A DNA stretch of 64,000 nt from an uncultured Planctomycetaceae bacterium (GCA_963813715.1 CAWFAK010000007.1:256001-320000); one strand, 5' to 3'. Shown: positions 21,735 through 38,392, counted from the first letter of the stretch. A program made the numbers and translations. The notes: a model not told the origin generated them from the sequence alone.

Positions 21735-23631
21735 CTAGCGGCCCGCGAGCGACAGCCGGAACGCGACCATTTCCTCACCGTTACGGGCGAGTAGCACGTC
21801 GCCGGCCAGCACCGGGTGGTTCCAGGTCTTCCCTTCGATGGCCGGGACCTTGGCCAATTCCTTGAACTCGTCTGGGCTCGCCGAACGAGTGCGAGCCCCC
21901 CTTGCTCCGACAGCACCAAGAGCAATTGTTGTTCGGACAGCAGGATCAATTGGCCATGGCCGTAGCGGCCCCCCTTCCAGCTCCGCTTGCCGTCGGCCAG
22001 GTCGATCGAGGCGAGGAATCCGTTGTCGAAACCGTACGCATGCCCCGCGTGGATGACGAAGTCGTTGTAATAGGGCTTGAGCCCCTGCGAGGTCCAGCGG
22101 TCCTCGGTCGTCCAACCGGCCGGCCCGTGGGCAACCGCAACGCGGCGCACGCCGACGCCGCCGGCCATCCCGGATCCGCTGCCGATCAGCAAGTCGCCCT
22201 CCGCCGTGAGTGAGGGTTGCACGATGCCGTCGCTCTCCCAGTCGTACTTCCACAGCAGCGTGCCCGTTTTCGGGTCGACGCTGACCGCGCCGCGCTGTTG
22301 AGCAGCAAAACCTGCTTCACGCCACCGATGGTCACGAGCTGAGGCGAGCTGTAGCCGCCGCCCTCCCCTTTGGGGCCCAGCCAGCGCAATTTTCCGATGA
22401 CGAGGTCGTACGCGACGAGTCGGCCGGCCGTCGCCACGATCACGAGGTTGTCGACCACCAGCGGCGAGCCGGCAAAGCCCCACATCGGGAGCTTCGCGCC
22501 GGTGTCGGCCGCGGCGTTGTGCGACCAGGCGAACGCGCCGTCGCCCGCGTCGAGCGCGTTGACGAGGCCCGTGGCGCCGCAGGCGTAGACGCGATCGCCG
22601 TTCAGCGTCGGCGTGGCCCGCGGGCCGGCCCCGGCGTTCGACTCCCAGAATCGGGTGGGGTCGGCGTGTCTCCAGATCGGCTGGCCCGTGGTCACGTTGT
22701 AGCACGCGACGATTTCCTCTTCGCCTCGCTGCTCCTGCGTGTAGAGCAAGTCCCCGCGGACGGCGAACGACGACCATCCCGGCCCAACCAGCCGTCGCCA
22801 CAGCTGCACGGGAGGCGACTTCGACCAGTCGGTGGCGATCTTCACGCCCCGCACGATGCCGTCGCGCTCGGGACCGCGAAAGCCGGGCCAATTGGCGATC
22901 GCTTGCGGAGCGGCGGGTTGAGTGCTGGTCGTTTTGACTCCGGTCGATTTGGTGGCGGTCGTGCTCGCAACCGCGGTCGTCTTGTCGGTCGGCTTGGTGC
23001 CGCCCGCATTGTTCCGGGCGATTGCCGTGACAGCGCGTGGGGCCGGCGGGGCGAGCGCCGGCAGCGACGCCGGTTCGTTGCCCTCCATTTGCAAAAGCCG
23101 TTCTTCGGGAGTCGGCGTCCAGCGCCAATGCAGGTCGGAACGGCCGTCGCCGGAGATTCCGCCCGTGCGGACGAGCGTGAGCGCACCGCAGGCCAAGAGC
23201 AGCGTGACGACCATCGTGGGCCGTCTGATCCACCACGGGAAGGGGGATGTCGCCGCCGCCCAAAGCACCAAGGCCAGGCACAGCACAGGAATACAAAAAA
23301 TGGGCAGCATGAAGCCCATCATGCCGGTCGCGATCGACTTGTGAACGTAGAGTGACGCGGCAAACATCCCGCCGACCATCACCGCCAGCGCCCCGATCCG
23401 TTCCAGCCAGGCCGCCCGACTGAAAAACAGCCACCACACCACGACCGCCAAGCCGCCACCAAAGATTCCCCCCATGATCCCGAATAACGCGGCATCGGGA
23501 ATAAGCCGCGGGAGAAGCAGCCACGCGAACGACTGCAGCAGGACGATCACGACGCCGGGCCAAAGACGCAACGGCCTTGGCTCGGATCGCCCATCCTGGG
23601 CTCGCGGTTCGTCCACGGCAGAGGTCTTCAT
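21735..23631 (-). CDS. Membrane-anchored PQQ-like (BamB-type) beta-propeller protein, apparent frameshifts near 22290 and 21890
   Basis: N-terminal TMs; WPGFRGPERDG, GPGWSSF, GPRATPT, GFAGSPL, GYSSP, KTWNHPVL..RNGEEM. Confidence 0.82.
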
Positions 23632-23819
23632 CGGCCTGCCCTCCCCGAGTGCTTCAATCCCGAAAGCGTCCGCTTGAGTCGACGATTCGACGCCTGGACT
23701 CGACAATCTCCCTGCCGAACGACTCGCCTGCCCAGCGGGACCGTTTCCGTTCCTCGCGGAGCCTTGTTAGTCTCGACCCGGAATTCGTCGCTGGCCCGCA
23801 GTTATTCGCTACTGCCACC

Positions 23820-25160
23820 GTGGAGCTTAGATCGTGCGTCAGCGCCCTGGGAATTCTGATTGTGTTGCTGGCTGCCGTGATTGTGCCGGCCGGTTTGGTC
23901 CTGGCCGAGTCGCCGCCGCCTAAGAACGCCGCTCCGGCAACGTCGCCGGCCGCGCCGACGGGCCCGCGCTTCGACCCGGTGACGGCCACCGAGGCCTACG
24001 TCGCCCGGCTGACGCCCGAGCAGATCGCCAAGTCCGACTCCTACTTCGAGGGGGGCTATTGGCTGAAGCTGTGGGGCTTCCTCGTTTCGTCGGCGATCTC
24101 CGTGATCCTGCTGACGACGGGCCTGGCGGCGCGGATGCGGAACCTTGCGGAGCGCCTCATCCGCTTCCGCTTCGCGCAAGGGCCGCTTCGCACCCTGGTA
24201 TTTGGGGCCCAGTACTTCTTATTCACGACGGTTTTGAGCTTTCCGCTGGACGTCTATGCGGGATACTTCCGGGAGCACCAGTACGACCTTTCGAACCAGA
24301 GTTTGGGCGACTGGCTCAAAGATGCCTCGATCGGAGTGGCGGTGCTGGCCGTCATCGGCGGGATCGCGCTCATGGTGCTGTACGCGATCTTGGGCCGCGT
24401 GCAGAAGAGCTGGTGGATCTGGGCGTCCGTGGCCTCGGTGGCGTTCTTGTTCGTCGTCAGTTTGCTGGCGCCGGTTTACATCGCGCCCCTCTTCAACAAG
24501 TACAAAACGCTCGACGATCCCAAGATCCGCGATCCGATTTTGAGCCTGGCCCGCGCCAACGAAATCCCCGCCGACCGGGTCTACGTTTACGACGCTTCGA
24601 AGCAGACGAAGACCATCAGCGCCAACGTCAGCGGCGCGCTCGGGACGATGCGGATCTCGCTCAACGACAACCTGCTTAATCGCTGCAACCTGGCATCGAT
24701 CCGCGCGGTGATGGCCCACGAAATGGGTCACTACGTCCTCAATCACATCTACAAGGGACTGATCGAAATGGGCCTGGTGCTGACGATCGGCTTCGCCTTC
24801 GTCGCCTGGGGCTTCCAGCGGATCGTGGCCCGCCGCGGCGCGGCGTGGGGCATCCGCTCGATCGCCGACCCGGCCGGGCTGCCGCTGATCGTGCTGTTGT
24901 TCGGAATTTATTTCTTCGTCATGACGCCGGTGACCAACACCATCACCCGCACGGCCGAGATCGAAGCCGACGCCTTCGGCCTGAACGCCGCCGCCGAGCC
25001 CGACGGATTTGCCGACGCGTCCCTGCTCCTCTCGGAGTACCGCAAGATGCACCCCGGCAAATTGGAAGAGATCGTGTTCTACGACCACCCGAGCGGGTAC
25101 AACCGCATCCTGATGGCGATGACGTGGAAGGCCGAACACCCGAACACCGGCAGTCACTGA
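23820..25160 (+). CDS. M48 Ste24-like membrane zinc metalloprotease
   Basis: Multi-TM; IAPLFNKY, VYDASKQT, AHEMGHY, EIEADAFG, YDHPS; start uncertain. Confidence 0.88.
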   Translation: MELRSCVSALGILIVLLAAVIVPAGLVLAESPPPKNAAPATSPAAPTGPRFDPVTATEAYVARLTPEQIAKSDSYFEGGYWLKLWGFLVSSAISVILLTTGLAARMRNLAERLIRFRFAQGPLRTLVFGAQYFLFTTVLSFPLDVYAGYFREHQYDLSNQSLGDWLKDASIGVAVLAVIGGIALMVLYAILGRVQKSWWIWASVASVAFLFVVSLLAPVYIAPLFNKYKTLDDPKIRDPILSLARANEIPADRVYVYDASKQTKTISANVSGALGTMRISLNDNLLNRCNLASIRAVMAHEMGHYVLNHIYKGLIEMGLVLTIGFAFVAWGFQRIVARRGAAWGIRSIADPAGLPLIVLLFGIYFFVMTPVTNTITRTAEIEADAFGLNAAAEPDGFADASLLLSEYRKMHPGKLEEIVFYDHPSGYNRILMAMTWKAEHPNTGSH

Positions 25161-27493: not shown

Positions 27494-28879
27494 TTATTCC
27501 GGCTGCGGCTCGGGGCGGACGAGGGCGCGGACGATCGGCGACGTCAGCATGGTCGTGACGATCGCCATCATGACCATCATCGCGAAGAGCTCCGGCGAGA
27601 TCACGCGCAGATCCAGGCCGATATTCAGCACGATCAACTCCATCAGCCCGCGCGTGTTCATCAGGGCGCCCAGGGCCGTGGCCTCGCTCCAGCTCGAGCC
27701 GGTCAAACGGGCGGCGGCGAGCGTGCCGCCGAACTTGCCGAGCGTCGCGATCAGGATAATCACGCCGCACCAGAACCACGGCCCCGCCCCGGTCATCAGG
27801 TCGATGCGCATCCGCATGCCGGTGAGCGCGAAGAATGCCGGCAGCAAGAGCACGGTCACGATCTGCTCGGTGCGGCGGGCAAAGTCGCGGGCGAAGTCGC
27901 TGTCGTGCGGGATGAGGGCTCCGAGCAGGAACGCGCCGAAGATCGCATGGATGCCAATCAGTTCCGTCGCGAGAGCCGAGGCCAGCAAGGTCACGAACAC
28001 CACGCCGGCGGCCGTTCGCGAGAGCCGTTTGGCCGAGGGGTGCCGGGCCAGCCGGACGACGAGCGGACGCACGACCAGGATCATGGCCGCGATATAGGCG
28101 ACGGTGCCGGCTACCACGTACAGCCCCTGGTCGACGTGAGCCTTGGCAACTCCCACGACAAAGGCCAACAGGCCCCAGGCTGTGACGTCGTCCATGGCCG
28201 CGCAGCTCAGCGCCATCACGCCGATCGGCGTGCGCGAGATTCCCTGGTCGGTGAGAATTCGGGCCAGCACGGGAAAGGCCGTGATCGACATCGCCACGCC
28301 GACGAACAGGGCAAAATTCGTAAACGGCACGTCGTTGGTCGACAACCGCGGGTACAGCGCCAGCGCGAGCAACGAACCCAACAAGAAGGGCACGACGATG
28401 CTCGCATGTGACGTGGCCACCGCCACCCGCGCCCGCCCCTTGATCAACCCGGCGTTGAGCTCCAGGCCGACGATGAACATGTACAAGATCACGCCGAGCT
28501 GGGAAATCACCCCCAAAAAGGGCGCGACCGTGGCTGGCAGGACTCGGGCCGAAAGATCGGGACCCAGGAACGACGGGCCAAGCAGAATGCCCGCCATCAC
28601 CTCGCCGATAACCGGCGGCTGCCCGATGTAGACGAAGATGCGTCCGAGAATCTGCCCGACCGCGATCACCGCCACGAGGGCCACCAGCACGTGCATCAGC
28701 ACGTCGCTCTGTTGCGGCGATCCGGCTGCCGCGTCGGAAACGGCCGTCGCCGCGGGCGCCGGGGCTTCGAGCGATTGGCCGAAACTGCGGATTGCCAAAA
28801 AGGCGGCAATCGTGCCGGCCACCATCACGGTGTAGCCGACAAAACCCAACGCCTTTCTCGGAGGAGCAGTATCAAGCAC
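27494..28879 (-). CDS. Cation:proton antiporter (CPA2/Kef-like)
   Basis: GQPPVIGEVMAGILLGPS, MFIVGLE, MSITAFPVLARIL, MDDV, GKFGG, LMNTRGLMELIVLNIG. Confidence 0.9.
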   Translation of the reverse strand: MLDTAPPRKALGFVGYTVMVAGTIAAFLAIRSFGQSLEAPAPAATAVSDAAAGSPQQSDVLMHVLVALVAVIAVGQILGRIFVYIGQPPVIGEVMAGILLGPSFLGPDLSARVLPATVAPFLGVISQLGVILYMFIVGLELNAGLIKGRARVAVATSHASIVVPFLLGSLLALALYPRLSTNDVPFTNFALFVGVAMSITAFPVLARILTDQGISRTPIGVMALSCAAMDDVTAWGLLAFVVGVAKAHVDQGLYVVAGTVAYIAAMILVVRPLVVRLARHPSAKRLSRTAAGVVFVTLLASALATELIGIHAIFGAFLLGALIPHDSDFARDFARRTEQIVTVLLLPAFFALTGMRMRIDLMTGAGPWFWCGVIILIATLGKFGGTLAAARLTGSSWSEATALGALMNTRGLMELIVLNIGLDLRVISPELFAMMVMMAIVTTMLTSPIVRALVRPEPQPE

Positions 28880-28883
28880 GGCA

Positions 28884-30172
28884 TTAGAAGGTATGCGTCA
28901 GGCCGACTCCGATCCAGTGAGCCTGGGCATTGACCGTGCTGTTGCTGAAGTCGCCACCGACCAGGGCGCTCGTCCCGACGGTCCGCTGCGGGCCGAAGGA
29001 GTACTGGTAGGCCAAATCGAGATGCCACGTGTCGACCAGCGTGGTCCCCCAGCCGAACGTGAATGAGTTTTCGAGGGTGGCCGGGATCCAGGGGGTGAGA
29101 GTCGAGCTGGGGATGGTGCCCGAGGTGTAGATGTAGCCCAACCGAATCACGCTGGCGTCGGAATAGAACCACTCATAGCCGGTCCGCACCGAGACGCTGT
29201 CCCACCAGTTGAGGGGAATCGACTGGTTGAACACCGGGCCCAGGAAGTGCGTGAAGATCGGGTTCGACGGAATCGTTCAGCTCGATGTTGATGTCCTTGA
29301 ACGCATCGGCCCAGTCGACCCACACGACGTCGAGCGAAACCCGCTGCCGGTGCGGCAGGTCCTGCTTGAGACCGATGCCGACCGTCGCCGGCCAGCAGAT
29401 GGTGGTCAACGTATTGAAGTGGCTGCTGACCGGCTCCGGTGCGAGGCCATAGACGGTCGCATCCATGTGGCCGTTGAGGCCGAAGTGGTCGGCGCTGGTG
29501 TAGGCGGCACCGAGCATCGTGGTCTCGGTCAATTTGTACTGGGCGCCGACCGACCAGGTCGGAGAGACGCCGTCGCCCACAAGCTTGATGCTGGTCGGCG
29601 CACCGGCAAACGGCCCCTGCTGAATGAAGAACGGGGTCTCGAGCTCTTCGTAGCTGTATGAGATGCCGAGCGTGGCACCGATCGTGAGATTGTCCATGGG
29701 CCGCCAGGCGATCGCCGGCAAGATCTTGATCAGCGAGCCGAACGACTTGTACGACTGGTTGCCCAACACCGGATTGTTGAGGTCCCATCCGGCGGCGAAA
29801 CCGGCGGGAGCGAAAATGCCGATGCCCCAGGCCCAGTTGCCGTTCTCGCTCTTCTGGAAATACGAGAGCGACGGCAGCTCGAGCGGACGGATCTTGGCCG
29901 ACGCGTCGTCGTTGATCGGATTGCTGTAATGCAGATCCGTGATCAGCGTGTCGCCGCTGACCTCGAAGAGCCCGTTCCCCTCGGCATTGAGGATACCGGC
30001 CGGGTTGGAGAGGATCACGGCTCCGTTGTCGGAGAAGGCGATGTTCGTGCCGCCGCGGCCGTCGGTGATCGCTTCGTTGCTGTCGCGAATCACGCCGTCG
30101 GCCCGAGCCGACGATGCCGCCAGAACCAACACGCCAAACGCAGCAGAGACAATTCTTGAAACGGATGTTCAT
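28884..30172 (-). CDS. FadL/OmpP1-like outer-membrane channel for hydrophobic compounds, apparent frameshifts near 30155 and 29270
   Basis: Signal peptide ..AASSARAD; GRGGTNIAFSDNGAVILSNPAG hatch motif; amphipathic beta-strands; C-terminal VGLTHTF. Confidence 0.78.
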
Positions 30173-30536: not shown

Positions 30537-31475
30537 TCAGCCTGCCTGACCGTGCACGCGGAGCTCGATCGGCAGCGGGAATTGGGCGAATTCCTCACGA
30601 ATCGTGTGAGGCTCGACGACGGCCCCGTAGCGGTCCATCAGGTAAGCCAGACAGTCTTCGACCACCTCTTCCGGAGCGCTCGCCCCGGCCGTCACGAGCA
30701 CCGTCTCGCAGCCTTCGAGCCATTGGGGATCGATCTCGCTGGCGGCGTCGATCAGATAGGCCGGCTTGTTCCCTTCCTTGGCGATCTCGGCCAGGCGATT
30801 GCTGTTGGAGCTGTTGCGGCTGCCCAGCACGATCACGACGTCCGAGGCGGGCAGCAGCATCTTCACCGCGTCCTGCCGGTTCTGGGTGGCGTAGCAGATG
30901 TCCTTCTTGGGCGGGCCAACGATCTTGGGAAACCGCCGCTTGAGCCGATCGATGATCTGGCTCGCCTCGTCGACGCTGAGCGTCGTCTGCGTGATGTAGG
31001 CCAGGCGGTCGGGATCGGGGACCTCGAGCGCGTCGACGTCGGCCACGCTTTCCACGAGCTGCATCTGCCGCGGAGCTTCGCCCATCGTGCCGACGGCTTC
31101 GTCGTGGCCGGCATGACCGATCAGGATCACCGTGCGGCCTTCGTTCGCGAAACGGATCGCCTCGAGATGGACCTTGGAAACGAGCGGGCACGTGGCGTCG
31201 ATGGTGGCCAGGCGACGCGTGCGGGCCTCTTGACGCACCTGCGGGCCGACGCCGTGGGCGCTATAAACCAAGCGGCCCCCTTCGGGCACGTCGGCGATCT
31301 CGTCGACGAACACAACGCCGCGGCGGCGAAAACTCTGCACGACGTGATTGTTGTGGACGATCTCGTGATAGACGTAGAGCGGCGATCCGAAGAGCTCGAG
31401 CGCCCGCTCGAGGGTCTGGATCGCCATCACGACGCCGGCGCAGAAGCCGTGGGGATTAGCCAGCAGGACTTTCAT
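30537..31475 (-). CDS. ispH: 4-hydroxy-3-methylbut-2-enyl diphosphate reductase
   Basis: GFCAGV, EIVHN, SAHGV, DATCPLV, GHAGHDE, TQTTLS, DICYATQNRQ, SSNSNRL, TAGASAPE. Confidence 0.96.
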   Translation of the reverse strand: MKVLLANPHGFCAGVVMAIQTLERALELFGSPLYVYHEIVHNNHVVQSFRRRGVVFVDEIADVPEGGRLVYSAHGVGPQVRQEARTRRLATIDATCPLVSKVHLEAIRFANEGRTVILIGHAGHDEAVGTMGEAPRQMQLVESVADVDALEVPDPDRLAYITQTTLSVDEASQIIDRLKRRFPKIVGPPKKDICYATQNRQDAVKMLLPASDVVIVLGSRNSSNSNRLAEIAKEGNKPAYLIDAASEIDPQWLEGCETVLVTAGASAPEEVVEDCLAYLMDRYGAVVEPHTIREEFAQFPLPIELRVHGQAG

Positions 31476-31564
31476 GGTTCGTTCCTTGCCTTGCGGCGAC
31501 CTTGCCCGTCCGCGACTTCCTGCGCGAGAAGCTTGGACCAAATCCTCGCGCTCGACAGAGCGCG

Positions 31565-32629
31565 CTATCCGGGAGCCCCTGCGGTTTGCGGCTCCGCAGT
31601 GACCATGTTCACGAAATAGTCGGCCGACTCCTCGTCGGCGAAACCCTTCTGCACGTTGATGAAATCCTGTTCCGCTTCGAGAAACACGTCGACCACATCC
31701 GGGTCGAAGTGCACGCCCGATTCGTCGACGATCAGCGACTTGGCCACGTCGTGCGTCATGGCGTTCTTGTAGACCCGTTTGGCCGTGAGCGCGTCGTACA
31801 CGTCGGCCAGCGCCACGATGCGGCCGACGAGCGGAATTTCCTCGGCGACCAGGCCCTGCGGATAGCCGCTGCCGTCGAAACGCTCGTGATGGGTGAGCGC
31901 GATCTCGCGGGCCATGCGAAGGAACTCGGCATCGGGCTGGAGCCGGCCCGCCGCTTCGAGCGTGTCGGCCCCGATGCGGACGTGCGACTTCATGATCTCG
32001 AATTCGGTGTCCGTCAGCGGCCCGGCCTTCAACAGCACGCTGTCTGGAATGCCTACCTTGCCGATGTCGTGCAGCGGGCTGGTGAGGTAGATCAGGTTGA
32101 CGTATTCCGCGTCGATTTCGTCGCGGTATTTCGGCTTGCGGCTCAAGCGGTCGGCCAGAATGCGGCAATACTCGCGCATCCGCTCGAGGTGCGCGCCCGT
32201 CTCGGGACTCCGCGACTCGGCCAGCTTGGCGAGCGTGAAGATCGTCAGGTTGCGGCTCTCCAACGAGAGCAAGCGCACGCCCGACTTCACCCGCACGCGC
32301 AGCTCGGCCGGATGAAACGGCTTGGAGATGAAATCGTCGGCCCCGGCGTCGAGCCCCTGCACGACGTTGTCGGTGCCGTCCCGCGAGGTGACCAGAATGA
32401 TGTACACGTAACTAGCGAAGCTGCGCTCGCGAATGCGGCGGCACAGCTCGAGGCCGTTCATCTCCGGCATTTCCCAGTCGGAGATGACGATGCGATACAG
32501 CCCCGTCCGCAGGATTTCGAGCGCCTCGCGCCCGTTGTGCGCGGCCGTGACCTCGTAGCCGGCGCCCGACAGCGCCTCGCCCAACAGCTCGAGTGCGATT
32601 TCATCGTCATCCACAATCAAGATGCGCAT
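31565..32629 (-). CDS. REC + HD-GYP response regulator (RpfG-like)
   Basis: ILIVDDD..ISDWEMP..SKP; ETGAHLER, LHDIGK, HHERFDGSGYP, ADVYDAL, KRVYK; ATG overlaps the kinase 3' end. Confidence 0.92.
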   Translation of the reverse strand: MRILIVDDDEIALELLGEALSGAGYEVTAAHNGREALEILRTGLYRIVISDWEMPEMNGLELCRRIRERSFASYVYIILVTSRDGTDNVVQGLDAGADDFISKPFHPAELRVRVKSGVRLLSLESRNLTIFTLAKLAESRSPETGAHLERMREYCRILADRLSRKPKYRDEIDAEYVNLIYLTSPLHDIGKVGIPDSVLLKAGPLTDTEFEIMKSHVRIGADTLEAAGRLQPDAEFLRMAREIALTHHERFDGSGYPQGLVAEEIPLVGRIVALADVYDALTAKRVYKNAMTHDVAKSLIVDESGVHFDPDVVDVFLEAEQDFINVQKGFADEESADYFVNMVTAEPQTAGAPG

Positions 32630-35600
32630 GGAACTTCTCCGGAGAGCACAGTTTCAGCCAGCACGGCGTCGGTCCGTTCGGGCGACGTCGCGGGGACCAA
32701 CGGCAAGGTTTCCTGCAGGAACCGCCGACTTTCGTATTTGAGTTTTGCCAGAGTGTCGCGGGCCGCGCCGATGTTGCCGCTCTTGGCCAACATTTCCAGA
32801 TCGCCCGACACGGCGCGAAGCGGCTCGGCCGACAGATTCGCGGCCGCCCCCTTCAACCGGTGGGCACAGCGTCCCAAAAGATCGCAGTCGCCGGCGTCCG
32901 CGGCCGTTTTGATCTCGTACAAATCGGCACCCAGCCGCGCGTGGAGCTTGACCAGCAGCTTGTCGGCCAGCTCGGCCTTGCCCAGGCAGCGCCTCAGGAG
33001 CGACGGCCGATCGATGACGATGGCCAGATCTTCGGCCGGATCCTGCTCGGCTTCGACCGCGGAGACAACCGCCGCCGGCTCGGGCATCTGGGCCACCTCG
33101 AACGGTTCCGGGGCCGCGCCTTCGGTCGCCGACAGCTGCACTTCGATCGTCTCGACGAGCTTGAAGGGATCGAAGGGCTTGCAGATGTAATCGTTCATGC
33201 CGGCGTTCAGGCACCGCTCGCGTTCGCCGGTCAGCGCGTTGGCGGTGAGGGCGACGATCGGCAGCACCGGCCCCGTGGCGCCCGCCGCCCGCTCGGCCTC
33301 GCGAATGTGCTGCGTCGCTTCCAGGCCGCCCATCTCGGGCATCTGGCAGTCCATCAGCACGAGGTGGTATTTCGTCTTCTGCACGGCTTCGACCGCCTGC
33401 CGGCCGTCGCCGACAACATCGCAGCGGTAGCCGGCCTGCGTGAGGATCTCGACGGCCACCTGCTGATTGATGTCGTTGTCCTCGGCCAGCAAAATGCGAA
33501 CTCCCTTTCGCGACGTGCGCGGAATGACGAAGGCTTCCGTCGTGTCCTTGCGCCCCAAGCGGGGACGGGCCTTTTCGGTGCCGTCATTGCTGACGACCGC
33601 CAACAGGGCCTCCATCAGCGCGGTCCGCATGATCGGCTTTGAGAGGCAATCCACAAAGCCCAAATTCCGCAAACGCAGCAAATCCTGCGGTGCCCCGACC
33701 GGCGTGAGTAGCATCAGGGCCGGCTTGCCCAGCTCGGGCAGCGAGCGAACGGTGGCGGCAAACTCCTCTTTGGTCAAATCGCTGACCCCGAGATCCCAAA
33801 GGGCAAAACTGTAGTGCGCTTGGGTGGTGGCCGCCTGTTCGAGCCGTTTGAGGGCTTCCGCTCCGCTCGTCACCTCGCTGACTTCCAGCCCCAGGTTGAC
33901 GAGCTGTTCGGCAACGATCGGCCGGCTGGTCTCGTTTTGATCGACGACCAGGGCCCGCAGACCCTGCAACGGCTTGAGCCGGTTCGCGTCGGCCTCTCCG
34001 GACAGCTCAGCCACCTCGAACGGCAGCGAGAACCAGAAGGTCGAGCCGCGGCCCACCTGGCTCTCGAAGCCGATGGCGCCCCCCATCAGTTCGCACAACT
34101 TCTTGCAGATCACCAGCCCCAGGCCCGACCCACCATATTTCCGCGTGATCGACGCGTCGACTTGAGAGAAGGCCTGAAACAGCCGGTTGAAGCGGCTTTC
34201 CGGAATGCCGATGCCGGTGTCTTCGACGGTAATGCGGAGCGTGGCGACGCGGTCGAGCTGTTCGACGACGGCGATGCGGACCACCACCTTGCCCCGCTCG
34301 GTGAACTTGATCGCGTTGTTCACCAGGTTGGTGATCACCTGCCGCACGCGGCCCGGGTCGCCGATCAGGCGCAATGGCACGCCCGGATCCGCAAAGTAGG
34401 CCATCTCGAGCGACTTTTCCTTGCACTTATGCGCCATCAGCTCGATCACCGGCTCAATGGTGGCGTGCAGGTCGAACGGGATCTTTTCGACCTCGAGCAT
34501 GCCCGCTTCGATCTTCGAGAAGTCGAGCACCTCGTTGAGCAAGTCGAGCAGCGACGTGCCCGAGAATTTGGTCGTCTGGGCGTACTTGCGCTGTTGCGAG
34601 TTGAGCGGCGTCGACATCAACAGGTCGGTCATGCCGATCACGCCGTTGAGCGGCGTGCGCAGCTCGTGCGAAATGTTCGCCAAAAATTCGCTCTTCGCGC
34701 GGTTGGCGGTTTCGGCCTCGACGCGGGCGGCGTGCAGCTGCTTGTTGTAGTCGGTGAGCTGCTTCTGCGTTTGCGACAGCTCGGCGACGAGCCGCTCCAA
34801 CTGCTTGGTCCGCTCGCGGACCCGCTCTTCCAAATTGAGGTTGAGGTCGCGGATGGTGCGGTTGTCGCGATCGAGCCGCTCGACCATCGAGTTGAACTGG
34901 CGGGCCAGGATGTCGATTTCGTCGTTGCCCGTCGGCGTGAGCCGCTCGGAAAGCAGTCCACTACCGACCCGGTCCATGGCGGCGACCATCACGTCGACCC
35001 GCTTGGTCACCGAACCGGCCATCAACGTCGCGTAGAGCACGCCTGTAATGGCCGCGGCGGCCGTGATGTACAAGGAGTGGGCTCGCAGCTCGCGGACGGC
35101 CTCCACCTGGTTGTTCTTGTCGGGGTCGTTGATGATGTCGGTGGCCCGCTGCCGCGCGACCTGGCCGATCATCAGCGCCGTGGTCGTAATGATCAAAAAC
35201 GAGCACAATCCCAGGCGGAACCGCAGCTTGCCCCGCGGCACGGCGCGATATTCAATCGACACTCCGTGCGCCAACAGGTGGCGAATCACGGTGCTCATGC
35301 AGTGTTCGACGGCAAAGAACGTGGCCAACAAGGCCAGGTTGATGCCCATGAACACGGCCCAGGTCAGGTTGATGAGCATGTCAACCGGAGCGCCGTGCCA
35401 GCGCAAATAGAGCGACACGGGCAACAGGCACGTCAGCGGCGTGAACCAGGCCTCGATGCGGTGATGCCGCGCCGAAAACAGGACCGCGTCACGGCCGGCC
35501 TGCTGGGCGTAGACCGGGTCGAACGGTTCGCCCCACTGGATACATTTGAGCACGTGCCGAACGCGCCTGAGCTCCCACAGAGCGATCAGCACGGTCGCCG

Positions 35601-35823
35601 TCACGCACTGCAGCACGACGGTGATGGCCGAGACGCGGAAGTGGTAGCGTAGCGCCGGGTCGAGCCGCAACGTCAGCTCGACGTAATAGATGACGAGCAA
35701 GCCGCCGATCGAGCCGCCCAAACGCGTCACGATCATCATCAGCAGGATGTACTGATGACCGAAACGGTTGAGGTATTTCTCGGTCAGCGATTGCTTCACG
35801 GCTGTGGCCTGTTTACCGGCCAA
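32617..35823 (-). CDS. Membrane hybrid sensor histidine kinase (multi-TM - HAMP - HisKA - HATPase - REC - REC - HPt; RpfC/BarA-like)
   Basis: About six hydrophobic segments; GNDEIDILARQFN HAMP; ANISHELRTPLNG; NAIKFT; DTGIGI; GGSGLGL; LAEDN..LMDCQMP; AHRLKGAA. Confidence 0.93.
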   Translation of the reverse strand: MAGKQATAVKQSLTEKYLNRFGHQYILLMMIVTRLGGSIGGLLVIYYVELTLRLDPALRYHFRVSAITVVLQCVTATVLIALWELRRVRHVLKCIQWGEPFDPVYAQQAGRDAVLFSARHHRIEAWFTPLTCLLPVSLYLRWHGAPVDMLINLTWAVFMGINLALLATFFAVEHCMSTVIRHLLAHGVSIEYRAVPRGKLRFRLGLCSFLIITTTALMIGQVARQRATDIINDPDKNNQVEAVRELRAHSLYITAAAAITGVLYATLMAGSVTKRVDVMVAAMDRVGSGLLSERLTPTGNDEIDILARQFNSMVERLDRDNRTIRDLNLNLEERVRERTKQLERLVAELSQTQKQLTDYNKQLHAARVEAETANRAKSEFLANISHELRTPLNGVIGMTDLLMSTPLNSQQRKYAQTTKFSGTSLLDLLNEVLDFSKIEAGMLEVEKIPFDLHATIEPVIELMAHKCKEKSLEMAYFADPGVPLRLIGDPGRVRQVITNLVNNAIKFTERGKVVVRIAVVEQLDRVATLRITVEDTGIGIPESRFNRLFQAFSQVDASITRKYGGSGLGLVICKKLCELMGGAIGFESQVGRGSTFWFSLPFEVAELSGEADANRLKPLQGLRALVVDQNETSRPIVAEQLVNLGLEVSEVTSGAEALKRLEQAATTQAHYSFALWDLGVSDLTKEEFAATVRSLPELGKPALMLLTPVGAPQDLLRLRNLGFVDCLSKPIMRTALMEALLAVVSNDGTEKARPRLGRKDTTEAFVIPRTSRKGVRILLAEDNDINQQVAVEILTQAGYRCDVVGDGRQAVEAVQKTKYHLVLMDCQMPEMGGLEATQHIREAERAAGATGPVLPIVALTANALTGERERCLNAGMNDYICKPFDPFKLVETIEVQLSATEGAAPEPFEVAQMPEPAAVVSAVEAEQDPAEDLAIVIDRPSLLRRCLGKAELADKLLVKLHARLGADLYEIKTAADAGDCDLLGRCAHRLKGAAANLSAEPLRAVSGDLEMLAKSGNIGAARDTLAKLKYESRRFLQETLPLVPATSPERTDAVLAETVLSGEVPCAS

Positions 35824-35854
35824 GCGGAGGGGGCCGCTCGTCGGGATGAATTCC

Positions 35855-36910
35855 CTATTTCTTCCCCCGGCTGCCCAAGTGCAGGCAGATCAGCCGCTGG
35901 AGTCCCCCGACGAGATCGGTCAAATTCACCGAGCGGCAGCGGGTCGCCAGCGCCAGGATCTCCCGGCGATAGGCCTGCCAGCGCTCGAGGAAGTGTTCCT
36001 CGTGCTTGCGTTCCCGGATCACGCCTTCGATGTATTCGCGGTTGCCGCTCCACAAGTCGCTGACCTTGAGGTCGCCGCAGGCAATCGCGCGGGCGAAGAC
36101 GCCGCTGGTGAAGTCGTCCTCGCCGATCTCGCGCTGCCAGGTGGTGATCATGTTGCCGATGCGGCCCATGCACTGCCCGCGCCACACCGCCTCACGAACC
36201 ACGCCCATTTCCGCGCGGTCGAACCGGGGCGAGCACATCATGTCCATGGTCGAAGAGACCATCATGTGCATGTTGTGCGGCAGGTAGAGGTCGTGCTCGA
36301 CCAGGTTGAACATCTCGGGATATTCATCCATCAGCCGCGAATAGCGCATCACGTTGAACAGCTGCCGATAGTCGAACTGCAACAGCTCGGCGAACTCGGC
36401 GTGGCGGGGAAAGTCCTTCACGCGGCGCTGGATCTCGTTCCAGATATCGAGCGTGAACCGCGCGTAGGCCCGCTGGTGCGGCAACAGCGATTTCTTCAGC
36501 TCCTGTCCGCCCGTCTCGAGCAAGTCGAGCAGGTGTTCCAGAAAGGCGAGATCCTTCTGATTGTCGGCGACGTCGTCGAGCATGACGTCGAGCATCACGC
36601 CCAACACCTTGGTGTCGGCCACCTCGTTCTCGAGGGACGGCTCGCAGCAGGTCAGCCGCGTGATCTCCACGCCGCGCCGTGCCCAGGTCCACAGGAACGG
36701 ATCGCGACGGCCAACTTGCGCGTAGCCCTCGACCCAGCCCGCGAGCGGGCGGCTCAATTTGATCGCGAGGACGTGCGCGATTTCTTGTTCGATTAATTCG
36801 GCATTGGGGAAGAAGTCGGGCATGACCACCGGTTCACTGGCCGCTCGAACCGCGTCCGAGCCGGCCGGGGCCAGAAGTTGTTCCACTAGAAGTTGAGGGT
36901 TCACGGTCAC
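35855..36910 (-). CDS. Putative class I terpene synthase / isoprenoid-diphosphate-using enzyme
   Basis: 351 aa with helical character; Asp-rich MLDDVADN (DDxxD) and GRIGNMITTWQRE, which has the N-x3-T-x3-E spacing of the NSE/DTE motif; AGGA RBS before GTG. Confidence 0.62.
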   Translation of the reverse strand: MTVNPQLLVEQLLAPAGSDAVRAASEPVVMPDFFPNAELIEQEIAHVLAIKLSRPLAGWVEGYAQVGRRDPFLWTWARRGVEITRLTCCEPSLENEVADTKVLGVMLDVMLDDVADNQKDLAFLEHLLDLLETGGQELKKSLLPHQRAYARFTLDIWNEIQRRVKDFPRHAEFAELLQFDYRQLFNVMRYSRLMDEYPEMFNLVEHDLYLPHNMHMMVSSTMDMMCSPRFDRAEMGVVREAVWRGQCMGRIGNMITTWQREIGEDDFTSGVFARAIACGDLKVSDLWSGNREYIEGVIRERKHEEHFLERWQAYRREILALATRCRSVNLTDLVGGLQRLICLHLGSRGKK

Positions 36911-37175: not shown

Positions 37176-37203
37176 AGCCTACTCCACGACTGAACTCTGT
37201 CAA
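37176..37203 (-). promoter_or_regulatory. Sigma70-like promoter for the terpene synthase - kinase - HD-GYP - ispH unit
   Basis: Minus strand TTGACA-16 nt-TAGGCT next to an AT-rich patch, about 265 nt upstream of the GTG. Confidence 0.5.
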
Positions 37204-37588
37204 CCGGCGCGTCCGTCAGTTTTTTCAGAATCTCTTTCGATCGACTTCGTTAAGTTTTTGACTTTCTGGAAAATTGGACTAAAGTGTGAGCATCGCATCT
37301 TCAGGCAGGTTCCAGTCGGGACATCAGATCCCGTTTTCTCGCCATCTCTTGCCGTTTGCGGTTGGCTCTTCCGGTCAGCGGATCGTCGACTTTTCGCGGT
37401 GTGCGTCTTTTCGCGGTGTGATTGAGACGATCGCCAAACTCAACGCGATCGTGCCGCGTTCCACTTCGCGATGAAGCGGCACCCGCCCGCATTGGACGAG
37501 TTCCGCAAGCCGACCTCGTTGATCCCACAACCTCATTGATCCACATCAGAGAATCCGCAAGCCCCGAATTTTCGAGGACGATTCCCCC

Positions 37589-38392
37589 ATGCCCCTCTTC
37601 TCCAAGCTGGACGACGCGCTGGAAGCCCTGACGCAGGGCCGCATGATCATCGTTGCCGACTCCGAAGACCGTGAGAACGAAGCCGACTTTCTCGTTGCGG
37701 CGGAACGGATCACATCGGAGAACGTGCACTTCATGATTTCGCACGGACGCGGACAGCTCTGCATGCCCGTCGTGTCGCAAATCGCCCGGCGCCTCAGCCT
37801 CAAGCCGATGGTTCCGCGAAAGAGTGCGTCGATGCCCTGCTTCGCCGTGCCGGTTGACCACTCGCTGTGCAAAACGGGAATCAGCCCAAAAGAACGGGCG
37901 TTCACAATCCGGAAGATCGTCGAAGATTCGACGCGGCCCGACGACTTTCTGCGGCCCGGACACATCTTTCCTCTGATCGCCCGCGACGGCGGAGTGCTCG
38001 AACGACCGGGTCACACCGAGGCCACCATCGACCTGATGCGACTGGCCGGGCTTCCGGCCGCGGGAGTGCTCTGCGAGATCTGCAGCCGCGACGGGGAACA
38101 CATGGCGACCGGCCGCGAACTCCTGGACATCGCCAAGAACTTCGGCCTGCCGATCATCACCATCGACAACGTGATCGATCGCATGCAGGCAAAGGTCCGC
38201 GCAGCGCTCGTCGAACGGCGCCGGCCGGCACCCCAACCATCGCCTGGTGGCACAGCTCACGAGCACCAATGGCGCGAGCGTCAATGGCCCAGGCGTCAAT
38301 GGTACCGGGGCCGGGCGGGTTCCCGCCTGCGCTCCGCCTGGGCCGCACAGACGCAACGGCAAACATCAGCCGACTCCCCCGTCACCGCTTGA
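37589..38392 (+). CDS. ribB: 3,4-dihydroxy-2-butanone-4-phosphate synthase, stand-alone; C-terminal tail probably frameshifted
   Basis: DRENEAD, GQLCMP, TGISPKERA, RPGHIFPL, GGVLERPGHTEA, LCEI. Confidence 0.85.
   Translation: MPLFSKLDDALEALTQGRMIIVADSEDRENEADFLVAAERITSENVHFMISHGRGQLCMPVVSQIARRLSLKPMVPRKSASMPCFAVPVDHSLCKTGISPKERAFTIRKIVEDSTRPDDFLRPGHIFPLIARDGGVLERPGHTEATIDLMRLAGLPAAGVLCEICSRDGEHMATGRELLDIAKNFGLPIITIDNVIDRMQAKVRAALVERRRPAPQPSPGGTAHEHQWRERQWPRRQWYRGRAGSRLRSAWAAQTQRQTSADSPVTA

Follow-up and report, generated by a model that had tools for sequence, protein, structure and literature searches.

Does a bacterium that carries a terpene-synthase-like gene directly upstream of a histidine kinase gene make an isoprenoid and sense it with that same kinase? 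The question is raised by a stretch of DNA of 64,000 nucleotides (nt), referred to below as the window, from an uncultured Planctomycetaceae bacterium (GCA_963813715.1, CAWFAK010000007.1:256001-320000). Between positions 30537 and 36910 four genes encode a terpene-synthase-like protein, a hybrid histidine kinase with a membrane sensor domain, a response regulator of the REC-HD-GYP type and IspH, an enzyme of isoprenoid precursor synthesis. The window is part of a Planctomycetaceae-like genome of 7.49 Mb (18 contigs, 82.6% complete), whose closest public record is a metagenome-assembled genome (MAG) labelled Planctomycetaceae. Comparison with other genomes showed that the pairing of synthase and sensor is obligate, the sensor being found only beside the synthase, and a make-and-sense signalling module is tentatively proposed to account for it. 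The genes and domains concerned are the following.

35855..36910, minus strand: terpene-synthase-like gene, encoding a soluble protein of 351 amino acids (aa).
32617..35823, minus strand: hybrid kinase gene, 1068 aa.
35029..35823, minus strand: membrane sensor domain of the kinase (residues 1-265), with about six transmembrane helices and two conserved cytoplasmic loops.
32617..35028, minus strand: cytoplasmic part of the kinase, with HAMP (34870-35025), HisKA (34501-34698), HATPase_c (34015-34362), REC (33145-33495) and HPt (32737-32940) domains.
31565..32629, minus strand: REC-HD-GYP response regulator, putative phosphodiesterase of cyclic di-GMP (c-di-GMP), 354 aa.
30537..31475, minus strand: IspH, the reductase of 4-hydroxy-3-methylbut-2-enyl pyrophosphate (HMBPP), cluster-specific paralogue, 312 aa from the MKVLL start.

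A preliminary description of the window, made from the sequence alone, had reported these as four co-oriented, closely spaced genes with intact frames, and this observation was confirmed. All four lie on the minus strand, with a gap of 31 nt between the synthase and kinase genes (35824-35854), an overlap of 13 nt between the kinase and HD-GYP genes and a gap of 89 nt between the HD-GYP gene and IspH. None of the eight insertions or deletions (indels) listed against near-strain contigs from RNA libraries falls within the four open reading frames (ORFs). Recurrence in dozens of divergent genomes places the arrangement far outside what chance would give.

When one genome per species was scanned, 65 loci with relatives of the synthase were obtained, to which the window proteins were compared by tblastn. 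Pairing was counted in the 59 loci with at least 1500 nt downstream, and companion genes in 34 loci that contain the sensor and extend 8 kb or more downstream. In 43 of the 59 loci the sensor domain follows the synthase on the same strand at a distance of no more than 400 nt, and 49 contain it at any position. Within the set of 34, IspH is found in 27, a FadL/TodX-type channel in 23 and an HD-GYP protein in 22, so that the expected linkage of homologues to the kinase, to IspH and often to HD-GYP held at 49/59, 27/34 and 22/34 loci, respectively. The locus records are labelled Planctomycetaceae, Pirellulales, Pirellulaceae and Phycisphaerae, and the identity of their synthases to that of the window ranges from 99% down to about 40%. 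In many lineages the synthase and kinase genes are separated by no more than 31 nt or overlap.

The reverse comparison started from the sensor. A profile of 16 sensor domains was run against 401 genomes sampled across the phylum and 401 sampled across the class, and matched in 2 and 18 of them, respectively. Every full-length match has a synthase immediately upstream on the same strand (2/2 in the phylum sample and 18/18 in the class sample, own genome included); the sole other match is a fragment of 57 positions in genome G459. No sensor was seen apart from the enzyme, and its input is therefore most simply read as dependent on the latter, be it on the product or on the protein itself.

Sequence searches with the 351-aa synthase gave no Pfam match (0 families at E<=0.1) and no NCBIfam match; the protein also falls below detection by the bacterial terpene synthase family PF19086 (Terpene_syn_C_2), and a search of PDB sequences with the protein and its profile returned nothing useful. 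It contains DDVAD at positions 112-116 and NMITTWQRE at positions 253-261. In an alignment of 50 homologues with 50-89% identity, residues D108, D112, D113, D116, N253, T257 and E261 are invariant, bearing out the DDxxD and NSE-like motifs of the preliminary description; also invariant are P211-H212-N213-M214-H215 (PHNMH, 211-215) and the C-terminal H344-x-G-S-R-G-x-K351 (HLGSRGxK). The N253/T257/E261 triad starts 141 residues past D112, the usual spacing between the DDxxD and NSE/DTE motifs being about 140 residues.

An AlphaFold (AF2) model built on this alignment reached a predicted local distance difference test score (pLDDT) of 89.9 and a predicted template-modelling score (pTM) of 0.88. 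Foldseek comparison of the model with the PDB gave 49 matches at E<=1e-3; all were terpene synthases among the matches listed, the best being tolypothrichol synthase (9kgb, E 7.1e-5, TM 0.60/0.63). VIA-align, run against 48,161 chains, placed 6oh6 at the top (Z 21.6, root-mean-square deviation 3.2, 278 residues), followed by 9hqd (Z 21.5) and 4okm (Z 21.3). In general, bacterial class I terpene synthases aligned at Z 20-21.6 over about 270-285 residues, and prenyl-diphosphate synthases scored lower, at Z 17-19. The 351-aa protein is thereby predicted to have a class I terpene synthase fold with its metal-binding motifs, and the isoprenoid-synthase fold anticipated for it is supported by the AF2 model, Foldseek and VIA-align alike. 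No hydrophobic or transmembrane segment was found in the protein, so it is presumably cytoplasmic.

A word-indexed search with the synthase returned 400 homologues at E<=1e-3 among 3032 candidates. No precomputed Pfam domain was present among the 120 homologues listed, and the named ones listed are annotated as 'hypothetical protein' and originate from Planctomycetes, Planctomycetaceae or Pirellulales MAGs. Searching 1.84 billion representatives with a profile extended the family to 745 members at E<=1e-3, which are themselves representatives at 50% identity. Distant members pass the PF19086 cut-off of 23.7 bits: a paralogue in genome G008 (L071 ORF; family profile E 2.6e-53) with 29.6 bits and representative P0270 with 34.6 bits. 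The nearest ESM Atlas cluster is automatically named 'Terpene synthase family protein' and carries PF19086 on 10% of its members. The family is sparse, being present in 5 of the 401 phylum-sample genomes and in one copy in the genome of the window.

Four groups were described in a FastTree phylogeny of 230 synthase domains. A clade of 144 sequences (support 0.97) contains all 46 loci linked to kinases with the six-helix (6-TM) sensor and all 55 representatives fused to the precursor enzyme DXS. A group of 12 includes four of the eight PilZ fusions, a clade of 41 unites the cyclic nucleotide-binding (cNMP) fusions with soil loci, and a clade of about 27 holds the loci linked to kinases of the 7TM type. 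Genome G008 carries distant synthase paralogues at L071:6445-8690 and L072:5120-8731. Two of its paralogues are arranged in tandem, one of them passing Terpene_syn_C_2, and another is located between a cytochrome P450 and an FAD oxidoreductase, in what looks like an ordinary terpenoid biosynthetic cluster.

The second gene was described as coding for a hybrid kinase with several transmembrane segments and an HPt domain, a view upheld by Pfam domains, hydropathy and structure prediction. Pfam assigned HAMP (residues 267-318), HisKA (376-441), HATPase_c (488-603), REC (777-893) and Hpt (962-1029), and the best NCBIfam match was BarA, with 511.8 bits, below the cut-off of 890. The N-terminus (residues 1-265) has five strong hydrophobic segments, and its model (pLDDT 77.8) has six long helices; because HAMP must stay cytoplasmic, six membrane passes are predicted. 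No Pfam family matched the sensor domain, no Foldseek match in the PDB was obtained with it at E<=1e-3, and the ESM Atlas gave a weak lead to MASE10 with low recognition. No kinship with the HisKA_7TM sensors of distant loci was detected (hhalign probability 0.1%). The REC-HD-GYP identity of the third protein is supported by Pfam (REC 3-114, HD_5 133-312, also HD) and by the HD (LHDIGK) and GYP (GSGYP) motifs in its translation. Judged by its domains, the predicted phosphorelay architecture is intact, running His-Asp-His(HPt) and then to REC-HD-GYP.

The fourth protein was correctly recognized as IspH: it matches LYTB with E 2.3e-92 and exceeds the cut-off of the NCBIfam equivalog NF002188 (423.5 bits vs 420). 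Its translation contains GFCAGV, ATCPLV and DICYAT, whose cysteines we take to be the three cluster-binding cysteines of IspH. The genome has three IspH genes, and a search for a second, housekeeping copy identified the window IspH as an extra paralogue, with the housekeeping copy elsewhere in the genome. Five other cluster-bearing genomes have two or three IspH each, one of them inside the cluster; 25 other genomes of the family carry a single copy (18 genomes), two copies (5), three (1) or none (1). A quick maximum-likelihood tree was built from 67 IspH sequences; in it the canonical copies linked to the cluster, 25 in number (L110 included, whose contig carries the whole module), form one clade with a support of 95 in the Shimodaira-Hasegawa-like approximate likelihood ratio test (SH-aLRT), apart from the housekeeping copies of the same genomes. 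The cluster IspH of Phycisphaerae-type loci forms a second deep clade. The tree shows an IspH paralogue lineage dedicated to the module. The third IspH-like paralogue of the genome is divergent (G000:C5:1176532-1177347, outside the window, 238.7 bits) and belongs to a deep clade seen also in several other Planctomycetaceae genomes.

Another enzyme of precursor supply is joined to the synthase in relatives. A DXS-like N-terminal part is present in 55 of the best 150 of the 745 family representatives, and in P0126 a full DXS (DXP_synthase_N 1.8e-88, Transket_pyr and Transketolase_C) is fused to the synthase domain. The 90% cluster of P0126 has 11 members, all of 915 aa. One of them bears just the name '1-deoxy-D-xylulose-5-phosphate synthase [Phycisphaerae bacterium]', and the fusion (P0126/P0281, 915 aa) goes by the DXS name alone at its source, the C-terminal synthase-like domain being unannotated. 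The synthase has DXS or a DXS-like sequence directly against it in 15 of 52 loci, and 29 of the 34 sensor-bearing loci have either IspH or such an abutting sequence. One ordinary DXS is encoded in the genome of the window, about 300 kb away. Dxs is described as rate-limiting, and IspG and IspH as redox-sensitive bottlenecks, of the methylerythritol phosphate (MEP) pathway (PMC13001223), so that the module carries flux-controlling steps of this pathway.

Two further genes flank the four.

28884..30172, minus strand: FadL/TodX-family outer-membrane channel, in two or three frames in the assembly.
37589..38392, plus strand: stand-alone RibB (3,4-dihydroxy-2-butanone 4-phosphate (DHBP) synthase) paralogue, divergent from the synthase.

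The channel gene had escaped the first description. The Toluene_X profile matches it in two frames (profile positions 2-298 in 29173-30132 and 309-421 in 28884-29234), and a frame with a signal peptide was found. Near-strain RNA-library contigs carry 1-nt indels at 29268/29269, 30146 and 30220, so the frame breaks are probably assembly errors rather than the mark of a pseudogene. FadL proteins are reported to pass hydrophobic substrates by lateral diffusion (PMC7728783), and a role of FadL for long-chain acyl-homoserine lactones has been described (PMC9938287); a channel of this type fits the passage of a hydrophobic small molecule. The RibB paralogue (DHBP_synthase 4.4e-71), of which a second copy of RibBA length is found elsewhere in the genome, is a probable module member. 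A RibB paralogue was found in 20 of 51 loci; at L158:8251-8835 it points the same way as the synthase, and in P0122 it is fused to the synthase domain.

Other neighbours are less closely tied. A gene for an Na+/H+ exchanger (27494-28879, minus strand) comes after FadL in some ten loci of Planctomycetaceae, and a few other loci have it upstream of the synthase; it could reflect local synteny or be a loose module member. The M48 CAAX-protease-like gene (23577-25160) was rejected as a module member, being absent from the related loci searched. A 32-codon ORF at 37200-37298 (minus strand) occupies the AT-richer spacer upstream of the synthase. Its conservation (59-100%) is confined to the four nearest relatives, and it may be a regulatory DNA element rather than a peptide gene. 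A scan for promoters and terminators returned nothing informative.

The region is represented by contigs with 95-99% identity in four metatranscriptome runs from rhizosphere or soil. The synthase/kinase junction is bridged by RNA-library contig X1 record 6 (35119-36186), the kinase/HD-GYP junction by X1 record 4 and X2 record 11, and the HD-GYP/IspH junction by X3 record 19. Co-transcription of the four genes is possible.

The composition of the module varies between lineages. Loci of the Pirellulales type divide sensing and relay between two large kinases, followed by REC-HD-GYP, IspH and FadL; one Pirellulales locus has a 119-codon ORF between synthase and kinase (L015:11000-11359), with no counterpart elsewhere among the loci. 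L045, L046, L055 and L037 have REC-HATPase proteins instead of HD-GYP. The Phycisphaerae-type order is a DXS-synthase fusion, an FAD-dependent oxidoreductase, IspH, the sensor kinase, a REC-kinase and FadL; this IspH is genuinely related to the enzyme (E 9.5e-59 to 3dnf), and the flavoenzyme has a weak likeness to group-A monooxygenases and halogenases. At L070 the order is FadL, the synthase, an STK-AAA-TPR-GAF-histidine kinase of 1693 aa, a REC protein and a REC-HD-GYP protein. In four low-GC loci, whose synthases are 25-34% identical to that of the window, the next gene, overlapping or a few nt away, encodes a HisKA_7TM-GAF kinase, which at L061 is split over three ORFs and has no GAF match. 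A polyprenyl synthetase gene follows the kinase in three of these four loci, with none there in L063. An unfused soil subfamily with 36-45% identity comes from 42 metagenome loci; in all four long ones (L123, L130, L135 and L137) the synthase is divergent from an adjoining TonB-dependent receptor gene, and at L130 (4916-9614) a YfiR/HmsC-like protein and a REC protein also adjoin it.

Elsewhere in the family the synthase is itself fused to signalling domains. An N-terminal PilZ domain is present in P0161, P0187, P0220, P0222, P0225 and P0271, two PilZ domains in P0265, REC plus PilZ in P0202, and a cNMP-binding domain in P0208, P0212, P0238 and P0258. The cluster of P0161 comprises 10 proteins, each 452 aa long. 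The family is thus tied to signalling in four independent ways, namely by the partner kinase, by the unrelated kinases of distant members, by the REC/PilZ/cNMP fusions and by HD-GYP or YfiR-like neighbours, and to isoprenoid supply in three, by the IspH paralogue, the DXS fusions and the polyprenyl synthetase.

These data can be united in a conserved make-and-sense isoprenoid signalling module of Planctomycetota with c-di-GMP output, a proposal whose probability we place somewhat short of even. In such a module the cytoplasmic enzyme would convert a prenyl diphosphate derived from the MEP pathway into a small hydrophobic isoprenoid, with the extra IspH (and the fused DXS in relatives) boosting precursor supply. 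The isoprenoid would partition into the membrane and be detected by the 6-TM domain of the kinase, whose phosphorelay would activate the HD-GYP protein and lower c-di-GMP; in other lineages the phosphorelay would feed REC-kinase relays instead. FadL could pass the compound through the outer membrane, enabling neighbouring cells to perceive it as well. The make-and-sense loop is favoured because the sensor was never found without the enzyme and because a channel of the type used by hydrophobic molecules accompanies them.

Several observations weigh against this proposal. All of its functional steps are derived from gene neighbourhoods. The sensor is absent from 10 of the 59 genome loci and from all of the 23 soil-subfamily loci with at least 1000 nt downstream, and the HD-GYP protein, at 22 of 34 sensor loci, is replaced in other lineages by REC-HATPase proteins. 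The best-conserved stretches of the sensor are the cytoplasmic loops 84-125 and 183-203; sensing may therefore occur from inside the cell, or be directed at the enzyme itself, and is not necessarily intercellular. The REC-PilZ, PilZ and cNMP fusions suggest that the enzyme can be placed downstream of second messengers, which fits a regulated output as well as a signal source. The co-phylogeny of synthase and sensor, proposed earlier as a check, was found in part: distances are significantly correlated (r 0.77, n 42), yet no more strongly than for the other neighbours (IspH 0.79, FadL 0.73, RibB 0.84). This co-divergence is not sensor-specific, and similar correlations for all neighbours indicate inheritance as a unit rather than specific co-adaptation. 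Finally, the depth of the RNA-library contigs is flat across genes, spacers and the divergent ribB on both strands, so carried-over DNA possibly lies behind them.

The fusions lead directly to an explanation with the direction of control reversed, which we consider rather unlikely although far from negligible: the synthase would be the regulated output, the kinase would sense another membrane or envelope cue, and the phosphorelay and c-di-GMP would control the synthase. The terpenoid, to which the kinase would be blind, would then act as an effector, for instance as a lipid that modifies membranes, as a volatile with a protective or antagonistic role, or as a cue between species. The REC-PilZ, PilZ and cNMP fusions keep the usual receiver-then-output order, the 10 members of the P0161 PilZ fusion have identical length, and at soil locus L130 a REC protein follows the synthase near the YfiR-like protein. 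Moreover, three unrelated types of kinase sensor are paired with the family, which is easier to understand if kinases regulate the enzyme. The window synthase, however, has neither a receiver nor a PilZ domain, the cluster has no DNA-binding regulator, and a route from HD-GYP to the enzyme is not visible in it. A sensor of a general cue would also be expected without the synthase, yet this one was never found alone (18/18), and a ligand loop would account no less well for the FadL channel and the tight translational coupling.

The conserved loops invite a further explanation, to which we give a small probability, namely that the synthase-like protein is a co-sensor that binds, and perhaps turns over, isopentenyl or dimethylallyl diphosphate (IPP/DMAPP) or HMBPP, and that attaches to the kinase at its cytoplasmic loops. 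The module would in that case report MEP-pathway flux or Fe-S/oxidative status to c-di-GMP, and the fused domain would feedback-regulate DXS. Besides the position of the most conserved sensor stretches, the short or overlapping junction of the two genes in many lineages, the frequent DXS fusions and the rate-limiting or redox-sensitive character of Dxs, IspG and IspH (PMC13001223) are compatible with this. Against it, the invariance of the full set of catalytic motifs across subfamilies and the recurrence of an FAD oxidoreductase and a FadL channel point to a released product, and sensing of MEP flux leaves the outer-membrane channel unexplained. Ordinary synteny, with a cryptic terpene synthase and its precursor-supplying IspH lying by chance of position beside an unrelated two-component system, is highly improbable. 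Extra MEP-pathway genes are a known feature of bacterial terpenoid clusters, and the similar distance correlations of all neighbours agree with it; but the pairing persists from 99% to about 36% synthase identity across Planctomycetaceae, Pirellulales and Phycisphaerae records, the cluster IspH has a history separate from that of the housekeeping IspH, the sensor domain never occurs alone, and independent fusions tie the enzyme family to signalling domains.

If the make-and-sense proposal is carried over to the family, its 745 representatives would be signal synthases wired into two-component and cyclic-nucleotide networks, and the obligate synthase-receptor pair of Planctomycetota would represent the first autoinducer system of bacteria to rely on a free terpenoid, equipped with a precursor supply of its own (IspH, DXS), an outer-membrane channel and a c-di-GMP output; we regard this broader claim as possible and rather doubtful. 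The window protein and most family members scanned have no Pfam match. The module offers a testable candidate consisting of one enzyme, one kinase and one c-di-GMP enzyme. It would give a role to an enzyme family now annotated as 'hypothetical' or, when fused, plainly as 'DXS', and, for Planctomycetota, whose signalling is still little understood, would tie isoprenoid metabolism to the control of lifestyle by c-di-GMP. It would also present terpene synthases as outputs of PilZ, cNMP and receiver domains, a point that would stand even if the kinase does not sense the product.

Most cell-to-cell signals for which bacteria have dedicated receptors belong to the acyl-homoserine lactones, fatty acids, peptides, furanones or quinolones, and we know of no described free terpenoid with a kinase receptor of its own. 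In openly searchable full texts (subscription journals and bioRxiv supplements lying outside the search) no description was found of a terpene synthase linked to a kinase, HD-GYP or PilZ, or fused to DXS. A close parallel in architecture is the Rpf system of Xanthomonas, which responds to the diffusible signal factor (DSF) and in which RpfC is a polytopic hybrid kinase (HisKA-HATPase-REC-HPt) and RpfG a REC-HD-GYP regulator. Like Rpf/DSF, the window combines a clustered signal-synthase candidate with a polytopic hybrid kinase containing HPt and a REC-HD-GYP output. RpfF, however, is a crotonase, whereas the window synthase has a predicted terpene-synthase fold, and neither an RpfF-type enoyl-CoA hydratase (crotonase) nor an RpfB-type gene was found among the proteins scanned at 21.6-47.5 kb. 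The sensor domain of the window forms a separate family, the cluster further includes IspH, FadL and RibB paralogues, and many lineages of the module exchange HD-GYP for REC-kinase relays.

The initial statement that no isoprenoid-based synthase-receptor cassette was known overlooks ComQXPA of Bacillus, in which the isoprenyl transferase ComQ is reported to modify the ComX pheromone, an isoprenylated peptide sensed by the kinase ComP (PMC4008528, PMC5331326). As in ComQXPA, the gene immediately upstream of the polytopic histidine kinase gene, and on its strand, codes for an enzyme with a predicted isoprenoid fold. In contrast to it, the 31-nt gap of the window leaves no precursor-peptide gene (comX) between enzyme and kinase, and no conserved small ORF that could code for a ComX-like peptide was found in the synthase-kinase gaps of 14 loci. 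The window enzyme has DDxxD and NSE/DTE motifs and is structurally nearest to terpene cyclases rather than to polyprenyl synthetases; it has no match to the polyprenyl synthetase family PF00348, and prenyl-diphosphate synthases align with it at the lower scores given above. Instead of a DNA-binding regulator such as ComA, the sole stand-alone regulator of the window is REC-HD-GYP, and the host of the module is diderm, with a FadL channel.

With the bacterial class I synthases of PF19086, such as selinadiene, epi-isozizaene and biformene synthases, the window protein shares a predicted alpha-helical fold, DDxxD on a long helix and the triad about 140 residues further on. It differs from them in lying below Pfam detection, in its own PHNMH and HLGSRGxK motifs and in having no recognisable RY pair, a feature of bacterial class I terpene synthases. 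The partners to which its family is systematically linked or fused are signalling and MEP-pathway proteins, not tailoring genes of the P450 type. The dedicated IspH, and DXS in relatives, adjoining the synthase recalls terpenoid clusters with duplicated MEP genes; unlike these, the window has, in place of typical tailoring enzymes, a complete predicted phosphorelay and an outer-membrane channel.

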